A DNA stretch of 64,000 nt from Christensenellaceae bacterium Phil1 (lineage in GTDB: Bacteria; Bacillota; Clostridia; Christensenellales; CAG-138). The stretch spans positions 20,215 to 84,214 of the forward strand of contig MSGS01000044.1 of NCBI GenBank assembly GCA_001940855.1. Reading direction: 5' to 3'. Positions within the stretch are counted from its first letter, which is position 1; every line of letters starts with the position of its first letter. The position numbers were made by a program, and so were the translations under genes. The notes under the pieces were generated by a model. That model saw only the letters and a program-made list of their open reading frames with translations. It was not told the DNA's origin and ran no database searches. Of this stretch, positions 20,014 through 39,301 are shown piece by piece.

Positions 20014-21120
20014 TTACTGCTTCTTGGCCTTCTGCGCCTTGATGGCCTCGGTCAGCATCGGGGTGACCTTGAACAGGTCGCCGCAGATACCGTAGTCGGC
20101 AATCTCGAATATGGGCGCGGATTCGTTGGTGTTCACAGCGATTATGCATTCGGAATCCTGCATACCGGCCTTGTGCTGTATCGCGCCGGAAATACCCAGG
20201 GCAATGTACACCTTCGGGTGAACTGTCTTGCCGGTCTGGCCAACCTGATGGTCGGCGGAGAGCCAGCCGTTGTCTATGACCGCGCGGCTGCCGCCGACAA
20301 CGCCGCCCAGAGCCTCGGCCAGATCCTCGGCCAGCTTGATGCCCTGCTCAACGTTCTTGCTTATGCCGCGGCCGACGGAAACTATGAAGTCCGCGCCGAC
20401 AAGGTCAACTATCTTCTTGGCAGCCTTAACGACTTCCACAACCTCGGTATGCACATCCTCCGCAGTCAGCTTGACCTCGGGACGGACGATTTCCACCGCG
20501 TCGGCCTTTGCCTGATCGAACTCGGCCCTGCGCATAACGCCGGGGCGCACAGTTGCCATAGCAGGACGGAAACGGGGGCATATGATGGTGGCCATAAGGT
20601 GACCGCCGAACGCCGGACGGGTCATCTTCAGGTTGCGGTCCTCCATATCGAACTTCATGCTGTCGATATCAAGGGTGGAGCTGGCGCGCAGGAAGTCAAG
20701 GTACTTGGGTACGTCAACGTCCAGATGCGTGCAGTCCGCGCAAAGGCCGGTGTGCAGCCTTGCCGCGCAGCGGGGGCCAAGATCGCGGCCGATGGTGCTT
20801 GCGCCGATAAGGAACACCTCGGGCTTGAGCTCCTCTATCGCGTCGCATATCACCTTGGCGTAAGCATCGGTGGTGTAATATTTAAGAAGCGGGGATTCGC
20901 AAAGGACTATCTTGTCCGCGCCGTAGCCGGCAAGCTCCTTGCAAAGGCCCTCTACATTGTCGCCAAGCAGCAGACCGCAGAGCTTAACGCCCAACTCGTC
21001 CGCAAGCTTACGGCCTTCCGAGATAAGCTCGAAATCGGTGGGCATCAGTTTGCCTTCTCGCTGCTCGCAAAATACCCAAACGTCCTTAAAGGCGGCTAAA
21101 TCCATGCTGTTGTAAGCCAT
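20014..21120 (-). CDS. etfA: Electron transfer flavoprotein, alpha subunit
   Basis: 368 aa. VWVFCEQREGKL N-terminus, and the FAD-binding C-terminal segment YIALGISGAIQHKAGM. Confidence 0.93.
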   Translation of the reverse strand: MAYNSMDLAAFKDVWVFCEQREGKLMPTDFELISEGRKLADELGVKLCGLLLGDNVEGLCKELAGYGADKIVLCESPLLKYYTTDAYAKVICDAIEELKPEVFLIGASTIGRDLGPRCAARLHTGLCADCTHLDVDVPKYLDFLRASSTLDIDSMKFDMEDRNLKMTRPAFGGHLMATIICPRFRPAMATVRPGVMRRAEFDQAKADAVEIVRPEVKLTAEDVHTEVVEVVKAAKKIVDLVGADFIVSVGRGISKNVEQGIKLAEDLAEALGGVVGGSRAVIDNGWLSADHQVGQTGKTVHPKVYIALGISGAIQHKAGMQDSECIIAVNTNESAPIFEIADYGICGDLFKVTPMLTEAIKAQKAKKQ

Positions 21121-21138
21121 GTGTGTTCTCCTTTCTCC

Positions 21139-21939
21139 TTAGATAATGTGCTTGGCGGCAAGCGTTTCGGCAAGGCCTTCGCAGGTGGCCTTATCGGCGC
21201 CTTCAAGCATCTGGCCAACACCCTTCGGAGGAGGAGTGAAGGACTTGAATATGTTGGTGGGGGAACCCTTGAGGCCTATGGTGGTCAGGTCGATCAGGGG
21301 ATCATCCTTCAGGGTATTGAAATCGAACACGGCGATGGGCTTCTTGAAGCTTTCGTACACGCCGCCAACGCTCATGTAGCGGGGTTCGTTCAGTTCCTTT
21401 ATGCAGGTGATGAGGCAGGGAGTCTGCACCTTAACGGTCATGTAACCATCCTCCAGCATGCGCTGAACGGTAACGGTGTCGCCTTCCTTCTCTATCTTGG
21501 CGGCATAGGTGACCTGGGGCAGATGCAGCTTTTCGGCGATCTGGGGGCCAACCTGCGCGGTGTCGCCGTCGATAGCCTGACGGCCGCACATTACTATGTC
21601 GTCCTTCTCAATGCCCAGGTGGTTAATGCCCGCGGCAATTATCTGGCTGGTGGCATAGGTATCGCTGCCGCCGAATTCACGGCCGCTTATCAGCACGCCT
21701 TCGTCCGCGCCCATGGCCAGCAGCTCACGCAGCATGCCCATTGCCGGTGGGGGACCCATGGAAACAACAACTACCTTGCAGCCGGTCTCGTCCTTCAGCT
21801 TGAGGGCGGCTTCAACGGCGTTCATGTCGTCCGGATTGGTTATGGTCTGCATGGAGGCACGATTCAGCGTACCGTCCGGATTGACGGCAACCTTACCGGA
21901 AGTATCGGGAACCTGTTTTACACATACTATAACTTTCAT
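21139..21939 (-). CDS. etfB: Electron transfer flavoprotein, beta subunit
   Basis: 266 aa. MKVIVCVKQVPDT start typical of EtfB. Confidence 0.93.
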   Translation of the reverse strand: MKVIVCVKQVPDTSGKVAVNPDGTLNRASMQTITNPDDMNAVEAALKLKDETGCKVVVVSMGPPPAMGMLRELLAMGADEGVLISGREFGGSDTYATSQIIAAGINHLGIEKDDIVMCGRQAIDGDTAQVGPQIAEKLHLPQVTYAAKIEKEGDTVTVQRMLEDGYMTVKVQTPCLITCIKELNEPRYMSVGGVYESFKKPIAVFDFNTLKDDPLIDLTTIGLKGSPTNIFKSFTPPPKGVGQMLEGADKATCEGLAETLAAKHII

Positions 21940-21949
21940 GTCTGCCTCC

Positions 21950-23122
21950 TTACTTCACGCCCAGGTTGGCCGCGATGACCATGCGCTGGACTTCGCTGGT
22001 GCCTTCGTATATCTCGGTTATCTTCGCGTCGCGCATCATGCGCTCCACGGGATATTCACGGGTGTAGCCGTATCCGCCGTAAAGCTGAACGGCCCTGCGG
22101 GTAACGTCGCTGGCGGCTTCGGCTGCGAACAGCTTGGCCATTGCGGCGTCGGCAGAGTAGCTTTCGCCCTTCTTGCCCGCCATTTCGGCCTCAACATACG
22201 CCTGCTTCTTGCACGCGGCGGAATATACCAAAAACTGCGCGGCCTTCATGCGGGTATGCATATCGGCAAGCTGGAACTGAGTGTTCTGCATCTGGGAAAG
22301 ACGCTTACCGAACTGCTTGCGCTCCTGCACATACTTTATGGTTTCTTCCACGGCGCCTTCGCCTATGCCCAGCGCCTGGCTGGCGATACCTATACGGCCG
22401 CCGTCGAGCGTTTTCATGGCTATGGCAAAGCCCTTGCCTTCTTTACCCAGCAGGTTTTCCTTGGGAACGATGCAGTTTTCCATTATCAGTTCGCAGGTGG
22501 CGCTGCCGCGGATACCCATCTTCTTCTCCTTCTTACCAACGGAGAAGCCGGGGAAGTCCTTTTCAACTATAAAGGCGGAAATGCCCTTGGTGCCGGCGGC
22601 CTTGTCGGTCATGGCGAATATGATATAAACGCTTGCATAGCCGGCATTGGTTATGAATATCTTGGTGCCGTTGAGCACGTAGTGGTCGCCCTCAAGCACG
22701 GCGGTGGTCTGCTGACCGGCGGCGTCGGTACCGGCGCCGGGTTCGGTAAGGCCGAACGCGCCTATCTTCTCGCCGCTGAGCAGGGCGGGCAGATACTTCA
22801 TCTTCTGCTCCTCGGTGCCGTTCTCGAATATGGGGGCGCAGCACAACGAGGTATGCGCGGAAACTATAACGCCGGTGGTGGCGCAGCATTTGCTCAGTTC
22901 CTCAACGGCCATTGCGTAAGCCAGAATGTCTCCGCCGGCTCCGCCGTACTTGGTGGGGAACGGAATGCCCATGAAACCGTAGCGAGCAAGCTTCTTAACG
23001 GTTTCCATCGGGAAGCGTTCTTCCTCGTCTACCTCTTCCGCAAGGGGCTTCACTTCGTTTTCAGCGAACTTGCGGTACAAATCCCGAAGCATCAGATGCT
23101 CCTGTGACAGGTTGAAATCCAT
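21950..23122 (-). CDS. bcd: Butyryl-CoA dehydrogenase (acyl-CoA dehydrogenase, Etf-coupled)
   Basis: 390 aa. Acyl-CoA dehydrogenase signatures (GLTEPGAGTDAAG, YEGTSEVQRMVIA). Lies directly upstream of etfBA. Confidence 0.9.
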   Translation of the reverse strand: MDFNLSQEHLMLRDLYRKFAENEVKPLAEEVDEEERFPMETVKKLARYGFMGIPFPTKYGGAGGDILAYAMAVEELSKCCATTGVIVSAHTSLCCAPIFENGTEEQKMKYLPALLSGEKIGAFGLTEPGAGTDAAGQQTTAVLEGDHYVLNGTKIFITNAGYASVYIIFAMTDKAAGTKGISAFIVEKDFPGFSVGKKEKKMGIRGSATCELIMENCIVPKENLLGKEGKGFAIAMKTLDGGRIGIASQALGIGEGAVEETIKYVQERKQFGKRLSQMQNTQFQLADMHTRMKAAQFLVYSAACKKQAYVEAEMAGKKGESYSADAAMAKLFAAEAASDVTRRAVQLYGGYGYTREYPVERMMRDAKITEIYEGTSEVQRMVIAANLGVK

Positions 23123-23157
23123 CTTTCTCTCCTTCTTTTAAGTGTATAATAAAGAAA

Positions 23158-24012
23158 CTATTTTATATAATCGTATATCCCGCGCCCTGTTTTGCGGCCC
23201 ATAAGCCCCGCGCGCACAAGCTGCCTCAGCTTTATATGCGCCCTGTACTTACTGTCGCACGTTTCGGTATAAAGCGTATCCATTATGAACAGGCACACGT
23301 CAAGCCCAATCATATCCGCAAGCGCAAGCGGGCCCATGGGATGGTTGCAGCCAAGCTTCATGGCCGTGTCTATATCCTCTTTGCTCGCTATGCCCTCGGC
23401 CCAAAGGCCGATAGCTTCGTTTATCATGGGTATAAGCAGCCTGTTCACCACGAAGCCGGGGCATTCGTTCACCTCAACGGGGGTCTTGCCCGCCGCCTCC
23501 GCCAAAGCGCGCGCTTTCGCGTACACTTCGTCGCTTGTGAACACGCCCCTTATCAGCTCCGTAAGCTTCATAACGGTTGCAGGGTTGAAGAAATGCATAC
23601 CAACCACCCGCTCGGGGTGCTTGGTAGCGGAAGCGATATCGGTTATGGATATGGAGCTTGTGTTGCTGGCAAGTATTGCGTCCGTGCGGCAAATATCGTC
23701 CAGCTGGGCGAATATCTGCTTCTTTATGTCCGCGCGCTCAACAGCCGCCTCAACCACCAAATCGGCATCCTTACAGTCCCCCAACTCGGTGGTGAAGCTC
23801 ATGCGCGAAAGTATCGCGCTGCGCTCCTCGCCGCTCATTTTGCCCTTGGCCACTCTTTTTTCAAGGGAAGCTTCAAGCCTTGCCTTCGCGGCGGAAATGA
23901 TATTGTTGTTGATGTCCCGCACTATAACGGCCGCGCCCGCGGTTGCGAACGCCGTCGCTATGTCCAGCCCCATCGTACCTGCGCCTATTACGGCAATCCT
24001 TTCATCCATCAT
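23158..24012 (-). CDS. hbd: 3-hydroxybutyryl-CoA dehydrogenase
   Basis: 284 aa. Rossmann motif IAVIGAGTMG and the C-terminal 3HCDH domain. Confidence 0.92.
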   Translation of the reverse strand: MMDERIAVIGAGTMGLDIATAFATAGAAVIVRDINNNIISAAKARLEASLEKRVAKGKMSGEERSAILSRMSFTTELGDCKDADLVVEAAVERADIKKQIFAQLDDICRTDAILASNTSSISITDIASATKHPERVVGMHFFNPATVMKLTELIRGVFTSDEVYAKARALAEAAGKTPVEVNECPGFVVNRLLIPMINEAIGLWAEGIASKEDIDTAMKLGCNHPMGPLALADMIGLDVCLFIMDTLYTETCDSKYRAHIKLRQLVRAGLMGRKTGRGIYDYIK

Positions 24013-24018
24013 CGTTCG

Positions 24019-24795
24019 TCATTCTCCTTTGAACTCCGCCTTTGGCCGCTTCGCAAGGAAGGCGGTCATGGCGTTGAGCTGATCCTCGGTCTCGAAGCAC
24101 TCGCCAAATACCTGCGCTTCGTAATCCAGGTCGTTTTCCAGGAATCTATCCACCCTGCGGCTCATGGCAACCTTGCAGTAATGCACGGCAAGCGGCGCGT
24201 TGTTGGCAATGGTCTCGGCCATTTCCATTGCGCCGTCCATAAGCTCCGCGTCCGGATATACCCTGTTCACCAGCCGCATCCTCAGCGCGTCCTCAGCGCC
24301 CACGGGTTTCCCCGTAAGCGTAAGCGTCATGGCGTTGGATGTTCCCACCACGCGCGGAAGCCTTTGTGTCCCTCCGAAACCAGGGGTGATACCAAGTCCA
24401 ACTTCAGGTTGACCGAACTTGGCAGTTTCGGAGCAAAGCCTTATGTCGCAGCACAGTGCAAGCTCCAGCCCGCCGCCCAGGGCGTAGCCATGGATAGCAG
24501 CTATAACAGGTATATACAGATCATCTATGCGCTTGAAGGCGCGGTGTCCCGCGTCGGCAAAGGCCTTGGCCTCCGCCCGGCTCAAGCCAACCATTTCCCC
24601 TATGTCCGCGCCCGCGCCGAAGGCCTTGCCTTCGCCGCTGATTATCAGCACCCGCACTTCCGGGTCCCGTTCAACCTTTGCCGCCGCCATCTCTATTTCA
24701 TTCAGCATGGCGGTATTCAGCGCGTTCAGCGCCTTGGGGCGGTTCAGTTTAAGCAGCGCGATATGCCCGCGCTTTTCAAGCTTTACAAATTCCAT
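24019..24795 (-). CDS. crt: Short-chain enoyl-CoA hydratase (crotonase)
   Basis: 258 aa. Crotonase-fold segments FGAGADI and ALGGGLELALCCD. Confidence 0.9.
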   Translation of the reverse strand: MEFVKLEKRGHIALLKLNRPKALNALNTAMLNEIEMAAAKVERDPEVRVLIISGEGKAFGAGADIGEMVGLSRAEAKAFADAGHRAFKRIDDLYIPVIAAIHGYALGGGLELALCCDIRLCSETAKFGQPEVGLGITPGFGGTQRLPRVVGTSNAMTLTLTGKPVGAEDALRMRLVNRVYPDAELMDGAMEMAETIANNAPLAVHYCKVAMSRRVDRFLENDLDYEAQVFGECFETEDQLNAMTAFLAKRPKAEFKGE

Positions 24796-24797
24796 TT

Positions 24798-25589
24798 TTA
24801 TTTGCCCATCCCGCGCTTGACCATTTCGGTAACGGCGAAGCTGGCAACGTCGTCGGCATACTTACCCGCGCCGAAGCCCGCATCGTAGCCCAGTTCCTTG
24901 GCAAGCTCATGAGTTATACGCGGACCGCCGCAGCAGACAACGAACTTGTCGCGCAGGCCTTCCGCCTCAAGCAGCTCTATCAGGTTGGTCAGGTTCTGGA
25001 TATGAACATCCTTCTGGGTAACGGTCTGCGAGACCAGCAGCACGTCGGCCTTCAGCTCCAATGCCTTCTTTATGAAGTCCTCATTGGGGACCTGGGAACC
25101 GAGGTTGTAGGCCTCTATCATTTCATAGCGCTCAAGTCCGTAATGGCCCGCGAAGCCCTTGCGGTTCATTATAGCGTCTATACCAACGGTATGCGCATCG
25201 GTACCGGTGGAGGCGCCGACCATCACAACCTTGCGGCCGATATGTTCGCGGATATATTCGTTGGTATCTTCCATGCTCATCACGTCGGATTCAACGGTTA
25301 TAACATGGATATCCTCATAGTTTACGGTGTGTACGCAGCTGCCGTAGACAACATAGAACGTGAACTCCTTGTCCAGCGGCATATGCCATGCCACGTTGGG
25401 TTCTTCAAGGCCCATCTTTTTGGCAATCTGGCGGGCTGCCTCTTCGCCGCGCTCATCATCCTTGATGGGCAGGGTGAAGCTGGTCTGCACCTTACCGTCG
25501 TTCATCGTGTCGCCATAGGGCTTCAGCTTGGTAAGATCCAGCGTGGTATCGAAGTCTATTTTATGGGTATTGTACAGTCCGCTGCTCAT
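24798..25589 (-). CDS. kamE: Lysine 5,6-aminomutase, beta (B12/PLP-binding) subunit
   Basis: 263 aa. Cobalamin DxHxxG motif (GTDAHTVGIDAI) in a Rossmann-like C-terminal half. ATGA overlap with kamD. Confidence 0.88.
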   Translation of the reverse strand: MSSGLYNTHKIDFDTTLDLTKLKPYGDTMNDGKVQTSFTLPIKDDERGEEAARQIAKKMGLEEPNVAWHMPLDKEFTFYVVYGSCVHTVNYEDIHVITVESDVMSMEDTNEYIREHIGRKVVMVGASTGTDAHTVGIDAIMNRKGFAGHYGLERYEMIEAYNLGSQVPNEDFIKKALELKADVLLVSQTVTQKDVHIQNLTNLIELLEAEGLRDKFVVCCGGPRITHELAKELGYDAGFGAGKYADDVASFAVTEMVKRGMGK

Positions 25590-27145
25590 TCTGCAACCCT
25601 ACCTTTCATGGCCTCAATAAAGGGATTGAAGTACCTGTCGTCCTTTACCACAACGCCCGCAAGGCCCTTGCCGCCGTCCTTAGGACGCTTTACGTCGGCA
25701 AATATGCCCTTTTCGATGGTGGTGAACAGGCCAAGCTTTTCTATCTCAACAAGAAGATCGGCAGCCTTGGTCAGCACTTCGTTGGCGCGGGTTTGTATTA
25801 TGCCGCCCTCCTTATAGGTCAGCTCGTCGCCCAGATCCTTCATGGTGCGGAAAATATACTGCGCATTTTCAATGGAAAGGGCGCGGTCGCTCATGAAGGG
25901 GGTATGTATGGCCTCGGTAAGCATACCGAGAAGGTGCAGTTTCTGGCCGGTCAGTATGGTGACCATGTTGAAGAGCGCATCCTGTATATGGCCGCGGAAA
26001 ATGTTGCCGGTCATGAACTTTGTAGGCGGCATGTATTTAAGCGGCGCATTGGGGAATATTTCGCGCGCCATCTGCGCCTGGGCAAGCTCAAGCAGGAAGG
26101 TATCTTCCACGGAGGGATCCATTTCAAACGCATGGCCAAGGCCCATCTGCTCTTCCCTCATGCCGGCTTCCTTGGCGAAAGCTTCGTTTATGAACTGGGA
26201 CGCGAGCACGGTGTGCGCGGCAACGATGGCGTCGTCAGTGGTCAGGTAGTTATCCTCGCCCGTATTGATTATAACGCCGGCATAGCCGTTTATAACGCGG
26301 GAGAAGTACTGGTCAACTATGGTGCGCTGCATGTTTATGTCGCGGAACAGTATGCCGTAGAGCGCGTCGTTAAGCATAACGTCCAGCCTTTCAAGCGCGC
26401 CCATGGCGGCTATTTCAGGCATGCACAGACCGGAGCAATAGTTGCACAGGCGGATGTAGCGGTGCTGTTCTTCGCCCACTTCGTCAAGCGCCGCGCGCAT
26501 CAGGCGGAAATTCTCCTGAGTGGCATAGGTGCCGCCGAAGCCTTCGGTGGTCGCGCCGTAGGGCACGTAGTCCAGCAGGCTCTGTCCGGTGGTACGGATA
26601 ACGGCTATTATGTCCGCGCCCTGCTTGGCGGCGGCCTTAGCCTGGGTTATATCTTCATATATGTTGCCGGTAGCGACTATGATATAAAGGTAGGGGCCTT
26701 CCTTGTCGCCGAAGCAGCTAAGGTATTCGTTGCGGTTCCTTACGTTTTCGTTTATGCGCGTAATGGTCTTTTCCACAACGGGATTTATGGCTGCGCGTAT
26801 ATCGGCGTCGCTATGGGCGGGCAGCTTGCTCATGTCAAGCTCGCCGCGATCTATTGCTTCCGCAACGCCCTGCGGGTCAAGTCCGGTTTCTACCATTGCG
26901 TTGCCAATATACCACGCCGCGCCTACGGGCAGTATGGAATTGGCCATAAGGTGATCGACCACCACGTTGGGCATGGGAACGTCCATCTCGTTGACGCCGT
27001 CTATACCCAGCAGGCGGCAAACCGCGCGCTCCACGGTGACCGTGGTGTGCTGATCGATAAAGCGCTGCGTATCCGCGGCAATGTTTGCGGCGGACTGGCG
27101 GGCGCGATCGACAAGCTCGCGGTTCAGGTTCAGTTTGCTCTGCAT
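25586..27145 (-). CDS. kamD: Lysine 5,6-aminomutase, alpha subunit
   Basis: 519 aa from ATG 27145 (GGGAGGTAA upstream; track start 27205 is a 20-aa extension). The size, the pairing with kamE and the position after kamA fit KamD. Confidence 0.85.
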   Translation of the reverse strand: MQSKLNLNRELVDRARQSAANIAADTQRFIDQHTTVTVERAVCRLLGIDGVNEMDVPMPNVVVDHLMANSILPVGAAWYIGNAMVETGLDPQGVAEAIDRGELDMSKLPAHSDADIRAAINPVVEKTITRINENVRNRNEYLSCFGDKEGPYLYIIVATGNIYEDITQAKAAAKQGADIIAVIRTTGQSLLDYVPYGATTEGFGGTYATQENFRLMRAALDEVGEEQHRYIRLCNYCSGLCMPEIAAMGALERLDVMLNDALYGILFRDINMQRTIVDQYFSRVINGYAGVIINTGEDNYLTTDDAIVAAHTVLASQFINEAFAKEAGMREEQMGLGHAFEMDPSVEDTFLLELAQAQMAREIFPNAPLKYMPPTKFMTGNIFRGHIQDALFNMVTILTGQKLHLLGMLTEAIHTPFMSDRALSIENAQYIFRTMKDLGDELTYKEGGIIQTRANEVLTKAADLLVEIEKLGLFTTIEKGIFADVKRPKDGGKGLAGVVVKDDRYFNPFIEAMKGRVAE

Positions 27146-27219
27146 TGATTTACCTCCCGATAAGTCAAAACCCTGCGGAAGGGACTTTCCCCTTCCGCAA
27201 AGCAATGGGTCAAGTTTGA

Positions 27220-28497
27220 TTATTTGTTCTCGTTCTTCTGCCTGTCGGCGTAACGATCCTTACGGAGCAGCTTGGTGGGTTCAAGATACTTCTGCTCAAC
27301 GCCCTGTGCAAGGCCGGCAACACCGGTCAGCGGGGCAACCTTGCGCTTGCCTTCGCAAACGTCGCAATGGCACTCATTCTTGTAAACCTCGGGCTCGGTA
27401 TAGGTGGTGATAACGCCTTCAAAGTTGCGCAGTATTACCTTGCGCGGGGTCTGGCTTATCACATAGTTGGGCATAACGGGGGTCTTGCCGCCGCCGCCGG
27501 GTGCGTCCACCACGAAGGTGGGGATGCAGTAGCCGCTGGTATGGCCGCGCAGGGCCTCCATTATTTCTATACCCTTGGAAACGGGGGTACGGAAGTGGCT
27601 CAGGCCCAGGGACGGGTCGCAGGCGTAAATGTAGTAAGGACGGACGCGGATGCGAACAAGCTCGTTGACCAGCTTCTTCATTACATGCACGCAGTCGTTC
27701 ACGCCGGCGAGCAGAACGCTCTGGTTACCGAGAGGGATACCGGCGTTAGCCAGCATGGCGCAGGCCTTGGCGGATTCTTCGGTGATTTCGTTGGGATGGT
27801 TGAAGTGGGTGTTGAGCCACACGGGATGATACTTGCTGAGTACCTCGCAAAGATGCGGGGTGATCCTCTGCGGCATAACAACGGGGGTGCGGGAGCCGAG
27901 GCGCACTATCTCAACATGAGGTATCTTGCGCAGCTCGCCGATGATGTAATCGAGCATATCGTCGCTTACCATCAGGCAGTCGCCGCCGCTGAGCAGAACG
28001 TCGCGCACTTCGGGATGATGGCGCACATAGTCGATGCAGGTGTCTATCTGGTTCTTGGCCACTTCGCAGTCATGCTGGCCGGCGAAACGGCGGCGCGTGC
28101 AATGACGGCAATACATGCTGCACTGGTCGGTGATGAGCAGCAGCACGCGGTCGGGATACCTATGGGTCAGACCCGGGCAGGGGGAGTCGATATCCTCGTG
28201 CAGAGGATCGGCGTCTTCATAGGGGGCGAACTCAAGCTCATGCTCGGTAGGTATGGCCTGCTTACGGATGGGGTCGTAGGGATCGTTAAGATCGATAAGG
28301 GAAAGGTAATACGGGGTGATGGCCATGCGCAGCCTGCCCAGCGTAGCCTTTATGCCTTCTTCTTCTTCTTCGGTAAGGGTGATGTATTTCTTAAGGTCCT
28401 CAAGAGTTTCTATGCGGTTCTCTACCTGCCATTTCCAATCGTTCCACTGTTCATCGGGCACGTTCAGGAACAGGCCGTTTTCCCTGCTTTTCCTCAT
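27220..28497 (-). CDS. kamA: L-lysine 2,3-aminomutase (radical SAM, PLP)
   Basis: 425 aa. Cluster motif CSMYCRHCTRR and the KamA-type N-terminus WNDWKWQVENRI. Confidence 0.93.
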   Translation of the reverse strand: MRKSRENGLFLNVPDEQWNDWKWQVENRIETLEDLKKYITLTEEEEEGIKATLGRLRMAITPYYLSLIDLNDPYDPIRKQAIPTEHELEFAPYEDADPLHEDIDSPCPGLTHRYPDRVLLLITDQCSMYCRHCTRRRFAGQHDCEVAKNQIDTCIDYVRHHPEVRDVLLSGGDCLMVSDDMLDYIIGELRKIPHVEIVRLGSRTPVVMPQRITPHLCEVLSKYHPVWLNTHFNHPNEITEESAKACAMLANAGIPLGNQSVLLAGVNDCVHVMKKLVNELVRIRVRPYYIYACDPSLGLSHFRTPVSKGIEIMEALRGHTSGYCIPTFVVDAPGGGGKTPVMPNYVISQTPRKVILRNFEGVITTYTEPEVYKNECHCDVCEGKRKVAPLTGVAGLAQGVEQKYLEPTKLLRKDRYADRQKNENK

Positions 28498-28607
28498 TTG
28501 GGTTCTCCTTTACTTTTTATTTTGGTAATATAAGGTATTAACTCGTTGATGCTACGAGGGGCCCACGGACATCCGCAGGCCCTTTTTCGCATTAAGCTAT
28601 GCTGTTA

Positions 28608-29648
28608 TCAGCAATACTTCTCATCGAACAGCTTGCGGAGCTTGGGGTTCTCGCGCAGCACGTTCAGGGTGATCTCGGCATGGTTCTTGGTGTAGCCGTT
28701 GCCGACGATCATGGTGACGTCCTTGCCTACGCCCTCGGCGCCCAGAGCCGCCTTGGTGAAGCTGGTGGCCATGGAGAAGAAGTATACCAGACCGTCGTCA
28801 CGGACGGGCAGTATGGCGCTCATCTCGCAGTTTTCAATGTTTACGCAGCAGATGGACAGGTCGTATTCCTTGCCGTCGTTGGCGGCCAGCGCGTTGTCAA
28901 GCACGGCGACGGGCTCGGTAGCGGAGGCGACGATGACCTTGTGGTATACGCCAAGCTCCATCAGGGCATCGACCTGCTTGGGGTTGCGGACTACGCCGAC
29001 TACGTTGCCGTTCGGGCCGACCTTCTTCATGGCTTCGTAGCCGCAAAGAACGCCGGACTTGCCGTTGGCGCCAAGGATCAGAACGCTGTCGCCTTCCTTG
29101 GGGAGCTTGCGGGCCTGGGCGGGAGCGCCGGCCACGTCGAGGGCTGCCAGGGCGAGGGGTTCGCTCATGTCATCGGGAAGCTTGGCATAGATGCCGCTCT
29201 CGAACAATATGGCCTTACCTTCGATATCAACGCGGTCGATGTCCTTATGGATGGCCTTGATCTTGTCGATGCGCAGCGGAGTCATGGACAGGGAGACCAG
29301 GGAAGCGATCTTGTCGCCGACCTTCAGGTCGCGGTCCTTGAGGTCTTCGCCGATGTAGCAAACCTTACCGATGAACATGCCGCCGGAACCGGTTACGGGG
29401 TTCTGCTGCTTGCCGCGCTCGGCAACTATGCCAAGGATCATTTCGCCGATCTTCTTCTCGTCGCCGCCGCAGGCTTCGGAAATCTGGGTGAAGGAAGCGG
29501 AGTCGATGTTCAGGGAGATGACGTCGCACATGATCTCGTTGGAGTAGAGCTTAGTCATGTCGTTGTCGATTTTGTAAGCCGCCTGGGTCAGAACGCCCTG
29601 GGGCTCGATCACGCGATGGATACCGTACTTGTTGCCTTTCATTGCCAT
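28608..29648 (-). CDS. kdd: L-erythro-3,5-diaminohexanoate dehydrogenase
   Basis: 346 aa from ATG 29648 (GGAGGA upstream). MDR-like dehydrogenase with a GANGKSG nucleotide loop. The assignment rests mainly on size and position between kce and kamA. Confidence 0.78.
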   Translation of the reverse strand: MAMKGNKYGIHRVIEPQGVLTQAAYKIDNDMTKLYSNEIMCDVISLNIDSASFTQISEACGGDEKKIGEMILGIVAERGKQQNPVTGSGGMFIGKVCYIGEDLKDRDLKVGDKIASLVSLSMTPLRIDKIKAIHKDIDRVDIEGKAILFESGIYAKLPDDMSEPLALAALDVAGAPAQARKLPKEGDSVLILGANGKSGVLCGYEAMKKVGPNGNVVGVVRNPKQVDALMELGVYHKVIVASATEPVAVLDNALAANDGKEYDLSICCVNIENCEMSAILPVRDDGLVYFFSMATSFTKAALGAEGVGKDVTMIVGNGYTKNHAEITLNVLRENPKLRKLFDEKYC

Positions 29649-29714
29649 TGTAGTTTTTCCTCCTGATATATAATGTTTGTATTGTTGACCCACAAAAGCT
29701 TGGGTCTTGTTTAA

Positions 29715-30542
29715 TTATTTAAGGGGCTTGAGGGAAAGGATTTCCCTGGCCTCTGCGGGGGAAGCGATGCCGCGGCCGAGTTCGTTGGCCAGGCGGACTA
29801 CCTTCTCCACCAGTTCGCCGTTGCTCTTTGCAAGCACGCCGCGGCTCAGGTACAGATTGTCCTCAAAGCCTACGCGCACGTTGCCGCCCATGACTATTGC
29901 GGGCGCGGCAAGAGTGAAGGCGTTGCGGCCTACGCCGGTGGCGGTCCAGGTGGAGCCTGCGGGTATGCCGTTCACCAGCCATGCAAGGTTCTGCACGGTG
30001 GCGGGGGTGCAGCCGGGTACGCCCAGCACGAAGTTGAACTGCATGGGTGCGCCGGGGACTTCGCCCTTCTTGGCCATGGTCAGAATGGTGTCCAGATGGC
30101 CCATTTCGAAGCACTCGTATTCGGGCTTTATGCCGTTTTCGATCATGCGCTTGCCGAAGGCACGCATGGTGGGCATGGTGTTATCGAATATTTCGTCGCC
30201 GAAGTTGCAGGTGCCGCAGTCAAGCGTGGCCATTTCGGGGAACAGCTCGGTGGGCTGCAGGCGCTCCTCGGGCTTCATGCCGGTGGCGCCGCCGGTGGAG
30301 GGGATCATTATAACGTCGGGCAGTTCGGCGCGGATGGCGTCCATAACTACGCGGAAACGTTCCCTGTCCTGGGTGGGGGTGCCGTCGTCCTCGCGCACAT
30401 GCACGTGTACTATGGCAGCGCCGGCGTTATAGGCGCTCTTAGCCTCGCGCACCATTTCCTCTACGGTGTAAGGTACGTTGGGATTCTGCTTCTTGGTAAC
30501 TTCTGCGCCGCAGATGGCGGCGGTGATTATAAGCTTCTCCAT
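29715..30542 (-). CDS. kce: 3-keto-5-aminohexanoate cleavage enzyme (BKACE/DUF849 family)
   Basis: 275 aa. MEKLIITAAICGAEVTK ... AAIVHVHVRED is the typical BKACE TIM-barrel N-terminus. Confidence 0.85.
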   Translation of the reverse strand: MEKLIITAAICGAEVTKKQNPNVPYTVEEMVREAKSAYNAGAAIVHVHVREDDGTPTQDRERFRVVMDAIRAELPDVIMIPSTGGATGMKPEERLQPTELFPEMATLDCGTCNFGDEIFDNTMPTMRAFGKRMIENGIKPEYECFEMGHLDTILTMAKKGEVPGAPMQFNFVLGVPGCTPATVQNLAWLVNGIPAGSTWTATGVGRNAFTLAAPAIVMGGNVRVGFEDNLYLSRGVLAKSNGELVEKVVRLANELGRGIASPAEAREILSLKPLK

Positions 30543-30601
30543 CAGTATCTCCTTTCCTGATTATCGCTTAATCATTTGCCTTGTAAAACAAGCCGTTTGG
30601 C

Positions 30602-30997
30602 TTATTTATGCTCTATACGCTGGCAGTCCTTGGGGGTGACGCAGGTGCCGTGCGCGCGGCATACAACGATGGGTTCCTCAAGGAACTCGGCAGCGGACGC
30701 GCTGATGTCGGTACGGGAGCGGATGACCTTGCGGGCTTCGAAGGTCATGGTGCGGCTGGTGTTGCCTACGCGCTCTATTTCGCCAACGGCCTCAATATAG
30801 TCGCCGGCGTATACGGGGGCAAGGAACTCCACCTTGTCATACGCGCAGAACAGGCCCTCGTCGCCGTCGTAACGGATAAGCAGTTCGGTCGCAACGTCGC
30901 CGAACAGATGCAGCATGTGCGCTCCGTCTACGAGATTTCCGCCGTAATGTGCATCCTCAGCACCCATCCTGAGCCTGATAGTCGATTTGATAGCCAT
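30602..30997 (-). CDS. kal: 3-aminobutyryl-CoA ammonia-lyase (hot-dog fold)
   Basis: 131 aa. The size, hot-dog-like sequence and first position in the lysine operon match Kal. RBS AGGAGGA upstream. Confidence 0.78.
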
Positions 30998-31142
30998 AGT
31001 TAGTTCCTCCTGTTGTTATAGTAATTTTCTATGGTAAAGCCTTAAAATCGTTATTCTGTTTTATATCGTTCCGTTTATGCGTTTGCGGGGCGCACCCTGC
31101 CGCACATACGGGCGGATAGCGCACCATCTTCAGATATCATAG

Positions 31143-31183
31143 AAAAGCAAAAACTATCGACACGGCAAATGCCGCATCGATAG
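31143..31183 (-). terminator. Expression-platform terminator of the lysine riboswitch
   Basis: Minus strand: CTATCGATGCGGCA-TT-TGCCGTGTCGATAG (14 bp including 2 G.U), followed by TTTTTGCTTTT. Its 5' arm is the 3' strand of aptamer helix P1. Confidence 0.75.
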
Positions 31184-31350
31184 CTCTTCATCCAATAAAC
31201 AAGATGACAGTCGCAGCGCGCTGGCCGCTGCGCCCAAGCATGGCGCCGGGATGAGCAGCCGTGCTTTCGGCGGAAGTCACATTCGCCTGCGTCATCGGGC
31301 CTCCCGCCCTTATCATTCGCATGGTTACCTTAGCCTCCGCGCCTCTATCG
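31178..31350 (-). promoter_or_regulatory. Lysine riboswitch (L-box) aptamer
   Basis: Minus strand: CGATAGAGGCGCGGAGG ... GCCGAAAG ... CTGTCA ... GGATGAAGAGCTATCG. It carries the conserved AGAGGCGC, GCCGAA(A/G)G, CUGUCA and GAGAGCU-like boxes in the canonical order, with P1 CGATAG/CTATCG. Confidence 0.85.
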
Positions 31351-31374
31351 TTTCGATATTCAATTAACGAATAT

Positions 31375-31404
31375 ATTATATTCGTTTTCGCCCCTCCGTG
31401 TCAA
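31375..31404 (-). promoter_or_regulatory. Sigma-A type promoter of the lysine-fermentation operon
   Basis: Minus strand: TTGACA (31404-31399), 18 nt, TATAAT (31380-31375). It lies about 25 nt upstream of the aptamer. Confidence 0.65.
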
Positions 31405-39202: not shown

Positions 39203-39251
39203 AATAACGTAAGAAAAATCATCATACGGAATGCTGTAAGGGAGTGCTTTG

Positions 39252-39301
39252 CGCGCGGGCAGAAACCAGGGCTTACGCCTTGTCAGCCGAGCGTTTTTTT
39301 T
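39252..39301 (+). terminator. Terminator-like element inside the ssnA leader (candidate attenuator)
   Basis: CGCGCGG (39252-39258) can pair with CCGAGCG (39287-39293), enclosing a GGCttacGCC mini-hairpin. T8 (39294-39301) follows immediately, 44 nt before the ssnA ATG. Confidence 0.4.

Follow-up and report, generated by a model that had tools for sequence, protein, structure and literature searches.

To our knowledge, bench work on lysine riboswitches has so far characterized OFF switches only, and the sole lysine-ON device in use stems from laboratory selection. Characterized OFF switches precede lysC (Bacillus subtilis, Escherichia coli) and asd (Thermotoga maritima). In these, the terminator lies apart from the closing helix of the aptamer (P1), an anti-terminator competes with P1, and lysine represses. 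Activating LYS elements located before genes for lysine catabolism have been proposed by comparative genomics (Rodionov 2003, as cited by Barrick and Breaker 2007, PMC2258182). Those that precede kal/kce in Clostridium sticklandii, Fusobacterium nucleatum and Thermoanaerobacter have been described as positively regulating lysine riboswitches (Mukherjee et al. 2017, PMC5584792). An earlier note on the DNA analyzed here had stated that activating elements were proposed for lysine utilization, and these papers bear this out. The literature searched, which reached few subscription journals, yielded no bench test of a natural lysine-ON switch. The wiring reported here was already predicted in print (2003), and the element is a well-supported further example of it, not a new kind of element.

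The window, which is the whole stretch of DNA that was analyzed (64,000 nucleotides), carries a lysine riboswitch on its minus strand. We consider this element to be, with a probability of about 0.8, a transcriptional lysine-ON riboswitch of a lysine-fermentation operon, as judged from its sequence, its predicted folds and its relatives in other genomes. The start of kal is found 176 nt past the aptamer 3' end (31173) on the same strand, and the order of the 11 genes downstream is kal-kce-kdd-kamA-kamD-kamE-crt-hbd-bcd-etfB-etfA, all on this strand.

20014..31011, minus strand: operon, from the ribosome-binding site through the end of etfA (20014)
31011-31006, minus strand: ribosome-binding site AGGAGG, before kal
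30997-30602, minus strand: kal (NCBIfam equivalog, above cut-off)
30542-29715, minus strand: kce (NCBIfam equivalog, above cut-off)
29693-28608, minus strand: kdd (NCBIfam equivalog, above cut-off)
28497-27220, minus strand: kamA (NCBIfam equivalog, above cut-off)
27205-25586, minus strand: kamD (NCBIfam equivalog, above cut-off)
25589-24798, minus strand: kamE (NCBIfam equivalog, above cut-off)
after kamE, minus strand: crt, hbd and bcd (family-level matches)
after bcd, minus strand: etfB (NCBIfam equivalog, above cut-off)
ending at 20014, minus strand: etfA (Pfam match)

The gene set from kal to etfA is the established route of lysine-to-butyrate fermentation. That the regulated genes degrade lysine, as the earlier note had stated, is borne out by a complete lysine-fermentation pathway, with six lysine-specific NCBIfam equivalogs above their cut-offs. 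The window genome (2.85 Mb, 78 contigs) has one RF00168 match and no other. The same applies to the other genomes of the genus, each of which (15/15) has exactly one RF00168 match, located before kal-kce. Thus, in each of the 16 sampled genomes of the genus, the single lysine riboswitch serves catabolism. In related families, lysine riboswitches are instead found before asd, dapA and transporter genes. As the sole lysine riboswitch is a catabolic one, lysine biosynthesis in this genus must be controlled otherwise.

The leader of the operon has the following features, listed from the promoter towards kal.

31375..31404, minus strand: sigma-70-type promoter, consisting of TTGACA (31404-31399), an 18-nt spacer and TATAAT (31380-31375), with 12 of 12 consensus positions
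31354..31359, minus strand: AUAUCG leader element, which pairs with the 3' arm of T1 in the P1-forced fold (about -2.6 kcal/mol)
31173..31355, minus strand: lysine riboswitch aptamer (L-box, RF00168), from cmscan (75.1 bits, full model) and fold
31143..31183, minus strand: intrinsic terminator T1, from a terminator scan, the fold and pairing across leaders
31089..31129, minus strand: second conserved hairpin, from a conservation block, with the outer helix predicted on 18 sequences

Rfam cmscan of the whole window returned two matches above the gathering score, one of which is RF00168 at 31355..31173 on the minus strand. This match covers the full model (positions 1-182) and has an E-value of 8.7e-18; its score of 75.1 bits is far above the gathering score of 30. 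The junction motifs of the Rfam consensus (AGAGG-GC, GCCGAA, CUG-CA and UG-AG-GCUA), arranged around five helices, are all present in the cmscan alignment, and so are the L-box hallmarks AGAGGCGC, GCCGAAAG, CUGUCA and GAAGAGCUAUCG that had been picked out from the letters alone in the earlier note. The note had also assigned P1 as CGATAG/CTATCG, and the aligned P1 is the same helix, CGAUAG (31350-31345) pairing with CUAUCG (31183-31178). When the transcript is cut to aptamer length, ending just past the P1 3' strand, its minimum-energy fold (-64.8 kcal/mol) is the Rfam structure including P1. At the level of sequence and predicted fold, the element is thereby confirmed as a genuine RF00168-class lysine riboswitch, which would be expected to bind lysine. 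The other Rfam match in the window is an ssnA RNA motif (RF03031) at 39224-39271 on the plus strand (50.8 bits, gathering score 37.3), in the control region of a purine cluster.

It is very improbable that the ligand of the aptamer is not free L-lysine but, for example, beta-lysine or another diamino acid related to the pathway, or that the affinity is much weaker, in keeping with catabolic concentrations. Such a reading would fit the score, as 75 bits is below that of most biosynthetic lysine riboswitches of relatives (80-121 bits), and also the expectation that a switch for catabolism should require higher ligand concentrations than one for biosynthesis. However, with every highly conserved junction motif of the Rfam model in place, no variant-specific change of the core was seen, and KamA, the first committed enzyme of the operon, uses L-lysine itself. 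L-lysine is retained as the putative ligand of the ON switch.

Both hexamers of the promoter are kept in the alignment of the genus (16/16 genomes). The transcription start is likely to be near 31368, about 7 nt past the TATAAT box. The 5' leader also contains AUAUCG, which is complementary to the P1 5' strand and to the 3' arm of T1 alike. This hexamer was considered as a fourth pairing partner but was downgraded, and its role is doubtful: it is conserved solely in the subclade of the genus to which the window genome belongs, and its pairing contributes just -2.6 kcal/mol.

Terminator T1 consists of a 5' arm (31183-31171), an AUUU loop (31170-31167) and a 3' arm (31166-31154) that ends in CGAUAG. 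The hairpin (31183-31154) is followed by the U-run UUUUUGCUUUUC, with U at 31153-31149 and further U at 31146-31143. Its folding energy is -26.9 kcal/mol compared to a shuffle mean of -10.5 (z -6.34), and none of the 200 shuffles was as stable. The 5' arm is made up of the P1 3' strand CUAUCG (31183-31178) plus AUGCGGC, as had been claimed for its first six bases. Because these 6 nt are common to both helices, P1 and T1 are mutually exclusive. The terminator stem proposed in the earlier note stands with respect to the hairpin and its U-rich tail, while its length had to be corrected: a stem of 14 bp would force a 2-nt loop, and the feasible hairpin has 13 bp, including two G-U pairs. P1 consequently removes the predicted six pairs, but from a total of 13 instead of 14.

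When P1 is kept, the leftover hairpin has 7 bp (-8.2 kcal/mol) and is 6 nt away from the U-run. An OFF logic was rejected on these grounds, as no terminator is able to coexist with P1. The layout is that of a direct overlap: an intrinsic terminator is located directly past the aptamer, its 5' arm holds the P1 3' strand, and a separate anti-terminator is lacking. For the full leader, the terminator fold (-91.5 kcal/mol) is ahead of the P1-forced fold (-76.8) by 14.7 kcal/mol. In folds of the growing transcript, P1 belongs to the minimum-energy fold from a length of 192 to about 210, and the terminator takes over from 212, once the CGAUAG of the 3' arm has emerged. Since the terminator is favored by 14.7 kcal/mol, the default state should be OFF and a ligand must act kinetically; with the terminator ahead by this much (about 15 kcal/mol), the switch can work only if lysine binds within a transcription window of about 20 nt. 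From mutual exclusivity and default termination it follows that the locking of P1 by a ligand can have only one effect, namely more read-through. Both the narrow time window and the P1 of this leader, which has 6 bp, half of them A-U, and might fail to resist invasion, count against the switch.

We propose the following course of events. The five-helix aptamer would fold first, with P1 complete when the polymerase is at about 31177. The next 36 nt encode the hairpin with its 5' arm (the P1 3' strand plus AUGCGGC) and its 3' arm, which ends in CGAUAG before the U-run. Without lysine, a small inner hairpin would form, and its 3' arm would displace the P1 5' strand by branch migration. The 13-bp terminator would thereby be completed and end transcription near 31150-31143. 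When lysine is bound, P1 and the adjoining junction would be locked, only the 7-bp hairpin at 6 nt from the U-run could form, and the polymerase would read on into kal-kce-kdd-kamADE-crt-hbd-bcd-etfBA. As a result, the enzymes of lysine fermentation would be made only when lysine is abundant. Of this course, the analysis shows the aptamer, the promoter, the terminator, the overlap, the gene content of the operon and the conservation of the wiring, while the binding of lysine, the direction of the response and its kinetic nature are inferred. In Intestinimonas AF211, a cultured bacterium from the same broad group, a kal-first lysine cluster is induced about 10-fold on lysine (PMC4697335). By analogy, based on the kal-first cluster, we count this induction in favor of the ON reading.

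The wiring was compared across 52 kal-linked leaders, of which 16 are from genomes of the genus and 36 from other Clostridia. For this, 80 loci encoding Kal relatives were fetched, and whole genomes were scanned for 50. A lysine riboswitch is present in 35 of these 50 further kal-encoding genomes, and in each of the 35 one precedes kal on its strand at a distance of 100-250 nt. The 15 genomes that lack a lysine riboswitch are mostly Bacteroidales. The segment directly before the T-run pairs with the P1 3' strand in all leaders (52/52), with at least 5 of 6 positions paired in 51 of them; three more pairs extend the helix outwards. The inner stem differs by lineage (AUGCGGC, GUCAA, ACGUG, ACAAC). 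When the T1 arms of 34 distinct leaders were aligned in a fixed register, 94.3% of the cells were paired compared to 78.8% upon shuffling (0 of 500 shuffles reached the observed value); this percentage is inflated somewhat, as the 3' arm was located as the best partner of the P1 3' strand. Both sides have changed at 8 of 14 pairs in this alignment, and pairing falls to 25-47% when the partner is slid by 1-3 columns. All comparative counts are drawn from related genomes and hence do not represent independent events.

The two competing helices differ in quality. P1 is Watson-Crick at 302 of 312 positions (six pairs in each of 52 leaders), while the six terminator pairs that compete with it include 37 G-U pairs and 14 mismatches. 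P1 is stronger than the terminator base in 32 leaders, equal in 14 (among them that of the window) and weaker in 6. If the competition between the two were tuned, a P1 more perfect than its rival helix would be expected. The large stability advantage of the terminator over the P1 state would also be expected of a constitutive attenuator, or of an aptamer relic that no longer switches, with the promoter or a protein factor determining expression. This explanation is hardly credible, however, in view of an aptamer under clear purifying selection in more than 50 species and of a P1 overlap that is kept, with P1 the more perfect helix, while the inner stem turns over. Moreover, it would be a disadvantage for the cell to have a strong terminator without regulation ahead of an operon of 11 genes. 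A switch in which lysine decides between P1 and T1 is the preferred reading.

As a contrast set, 27 lysine riboswitches from related families were used, which are located before asd, dapA, or genes for NhaC-type transporters or ABC binding proteins. In 26 of these 27, the distance from the start of the P1 3' strand to the terminator, which lies downstream, is 20-74 nt, and the two do not overlap. This layout, which leaves room for an anti-terminator, is that of a classical OFF switch. The split between the ON and the OFF layout tracks the function of the downstream gene. P1 length showed no clear difference between ON and OFF leaders. The ON geometry claimed in the earlier note is thus supported by the 6-nt overlap, by its presence in all 52 kal leaders, by the covarying stem and by this OFF-type contrast.

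A reverse search of species-representative genomes used a pattern that describes only the geometry (aptamer 3' end, short gap, partner of the P1 strand, then T). It returned 117 stretches. Of the 80 that were fetched, 61 have kal within 400 nt downstream. The remaining matches include one kamA leader, two leaders of EamA-type transporters and a few OFF-type or chance matches. In the kamA leader (L192, from a Lachnospiraceae MAG), an ON-type lysine riboswitch directly precedes kamA (lysine 2,3-aminomutase) instead of kal. The P1/terminator overlap of the ON type is also found before a gene for an EamA/DMT-family transporter, both at L165, which is the second lysine riboswitch of genome G035, and at L182. 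This transporter is possibly a lysine exporter or importer that is switched on by lysine.

A second hairpin (31089..31129) is located between T1 and kal. It is headed by a repeat of the closing strand of the aptamer (AGATGGTGCGCTATCC). The 5' side of the hairpin, AGAUGGUGCGCUAUCC (31129-31114), is a near repeat of the aptamer 3' closing strand GGAUGAAGAGCUAUCG, a stretch made up of the 3' strand of P5, the junction and the 3' strand of P1. The outer helix has 7 bp and pairs GGUGCGC (31125-31119) with GUGCGCC (31095-31089). Across the 16 genomes of the genus, the repeat block hardly changes, and three further leaders (L028, L052 and L104) have it as well, while its flanks vary and contain indels. 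The second hairpin did not match any Rfam family up to an E-value of 10. A small ORF in this region (MVRYP...) was rejected, as only its first five codons are conserved and the changes downstream are compensatory within hairpins.

In the window genome and its six closest relatives, the second hairpin is not followed by a U-run and thus cannot be an intrinsic terminator there. In one subclade of the genus and in outgroups, a T-run follows the hairpin, which has -20 to -33 kcal/mol, so that in these sister lineages it looks like a strong second terminator. The subclade of the window has the cleaner U-run at T1 (UUUUUGCUUUUC versus CGUUUGUUCUUUU). It would appear that in this subclade the second hairpin lost its U-run and T1 gained a better one, while the repeat stayed invariant. 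The invariant repeat may still act in switching, or in a function that has yet to be recognized.

It is tempting to speculate that one sensor gates two terminators in series, either by a chain of alternative pairings or by an aptamer that closes again with the second strand; we rate this as rather doubtful. The narrower proposal that the repeat (31129-31114) and its hairpin are part of the regulatory device at this locus, so that the picture of a single terminator is incomplete, we hold to be unlikely. It comes in two versions. In the first, a relay, either P1 or T1 would form, and then the T1 3' arm would pair with the repeat or the second hairpin would form. In the second, the repeat would serve as a second closing strand, by which the same aptamer is read again. 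Such a device would account for a nearly invariant repeat between two variable flanks, for the copying of three successive elements of the closing strand and for the T-run after a stable hairpin in the sister lineages. The relay is further favored by the complementarity between the T1 3' arm and the 5' arm of the second hairpin, which exceeds that of shuffles with p 0.006-0.04 in five leaders (G005, G006, L065, L074 and L050). In about half of the leaders, however, this complementarity is not significant (duplex energies compared to shuffles), and in the window genome (G000) the pairing extends over just 5-6 bp. The outer helix shows little covariation, and the missing U-run in the window genome and its six closest relatives also argues against a second checkpoint. 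Most copies of the repeat, moreover, alter a conserved A of the junction, so that an aptamer closed in this way may lack a working pocket. For the locus in the window, the single lysine-ON switch at T1 is the reading that we retain.

This family is well suited for a test of a natural lysine-ON switch: it is compact, with a consensus promoter and a clean terminator, and it occurs in dozens of gut and rumen Oscillospiraceae. Among its carriers are the cultured strains Brotocaccenecus cirricatena CLA-AA-H272 and Vescimonas sanitatis MH37-1. The switch probably marks the point at which lysine-to-butyrate fermentation is controlled in abundant gut bacteria. With ON and OFF versions of one aptamer class being matched in this way, it can be studied how expression platforms set the sign of regulation.

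Among the described systems, the predicted activating LYS elements are the closest. As far as later papers describe them, they agree with the element reported here in the aptamer family, in having kal/kce-first targets and in the proposed burial of part of a terminator stem upon lysine binding. They differ in lineage, which here consists of uncultured gut and rumen Oscillospiraceae, and in that the element is here the sole lysine riboswitch of the genome, located before a fused 11-gene operon that extends through crt-hbd-bcd-etfBA. A conserved repeat of the closing strand after the terminator is a further difference. The OFF switches of lysC and asd have the same RF00168 aptamer and the same junction motifs; here, it is the terminator and not an anti-terminator that competes with P1. 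The synthetic lysine-ON riboswitch (Zhou and Zeng 2015, as described in PMC5651080) also turns a gene on by means of a lysine aptamer RNA, as we propose for this element. According to that description, it is the product of a laboratory selection that started from an OFF switch, and its hosts are E. coli and Corynebacterium, while the element described here is natural and would act via a terminator.

In its mechanism, the element resembles the pbuE (ydhL) adenine riboswitch of Bacillus subtilis, a characterized transcriptional ON switch. In both, the P1 3' strand is contained within the 5' arm of the terminator and there is no separate anti-terminator. By analogy with pbuE, termination would be the default, and the ligand would have to bind during transcription in order to block strand invasion. 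The two differ in the sensor: pbuE has a three-way purine junction of about 70 nt and another ligand, while the aptamer described here is a five-way lysine junction of about 180 nt.
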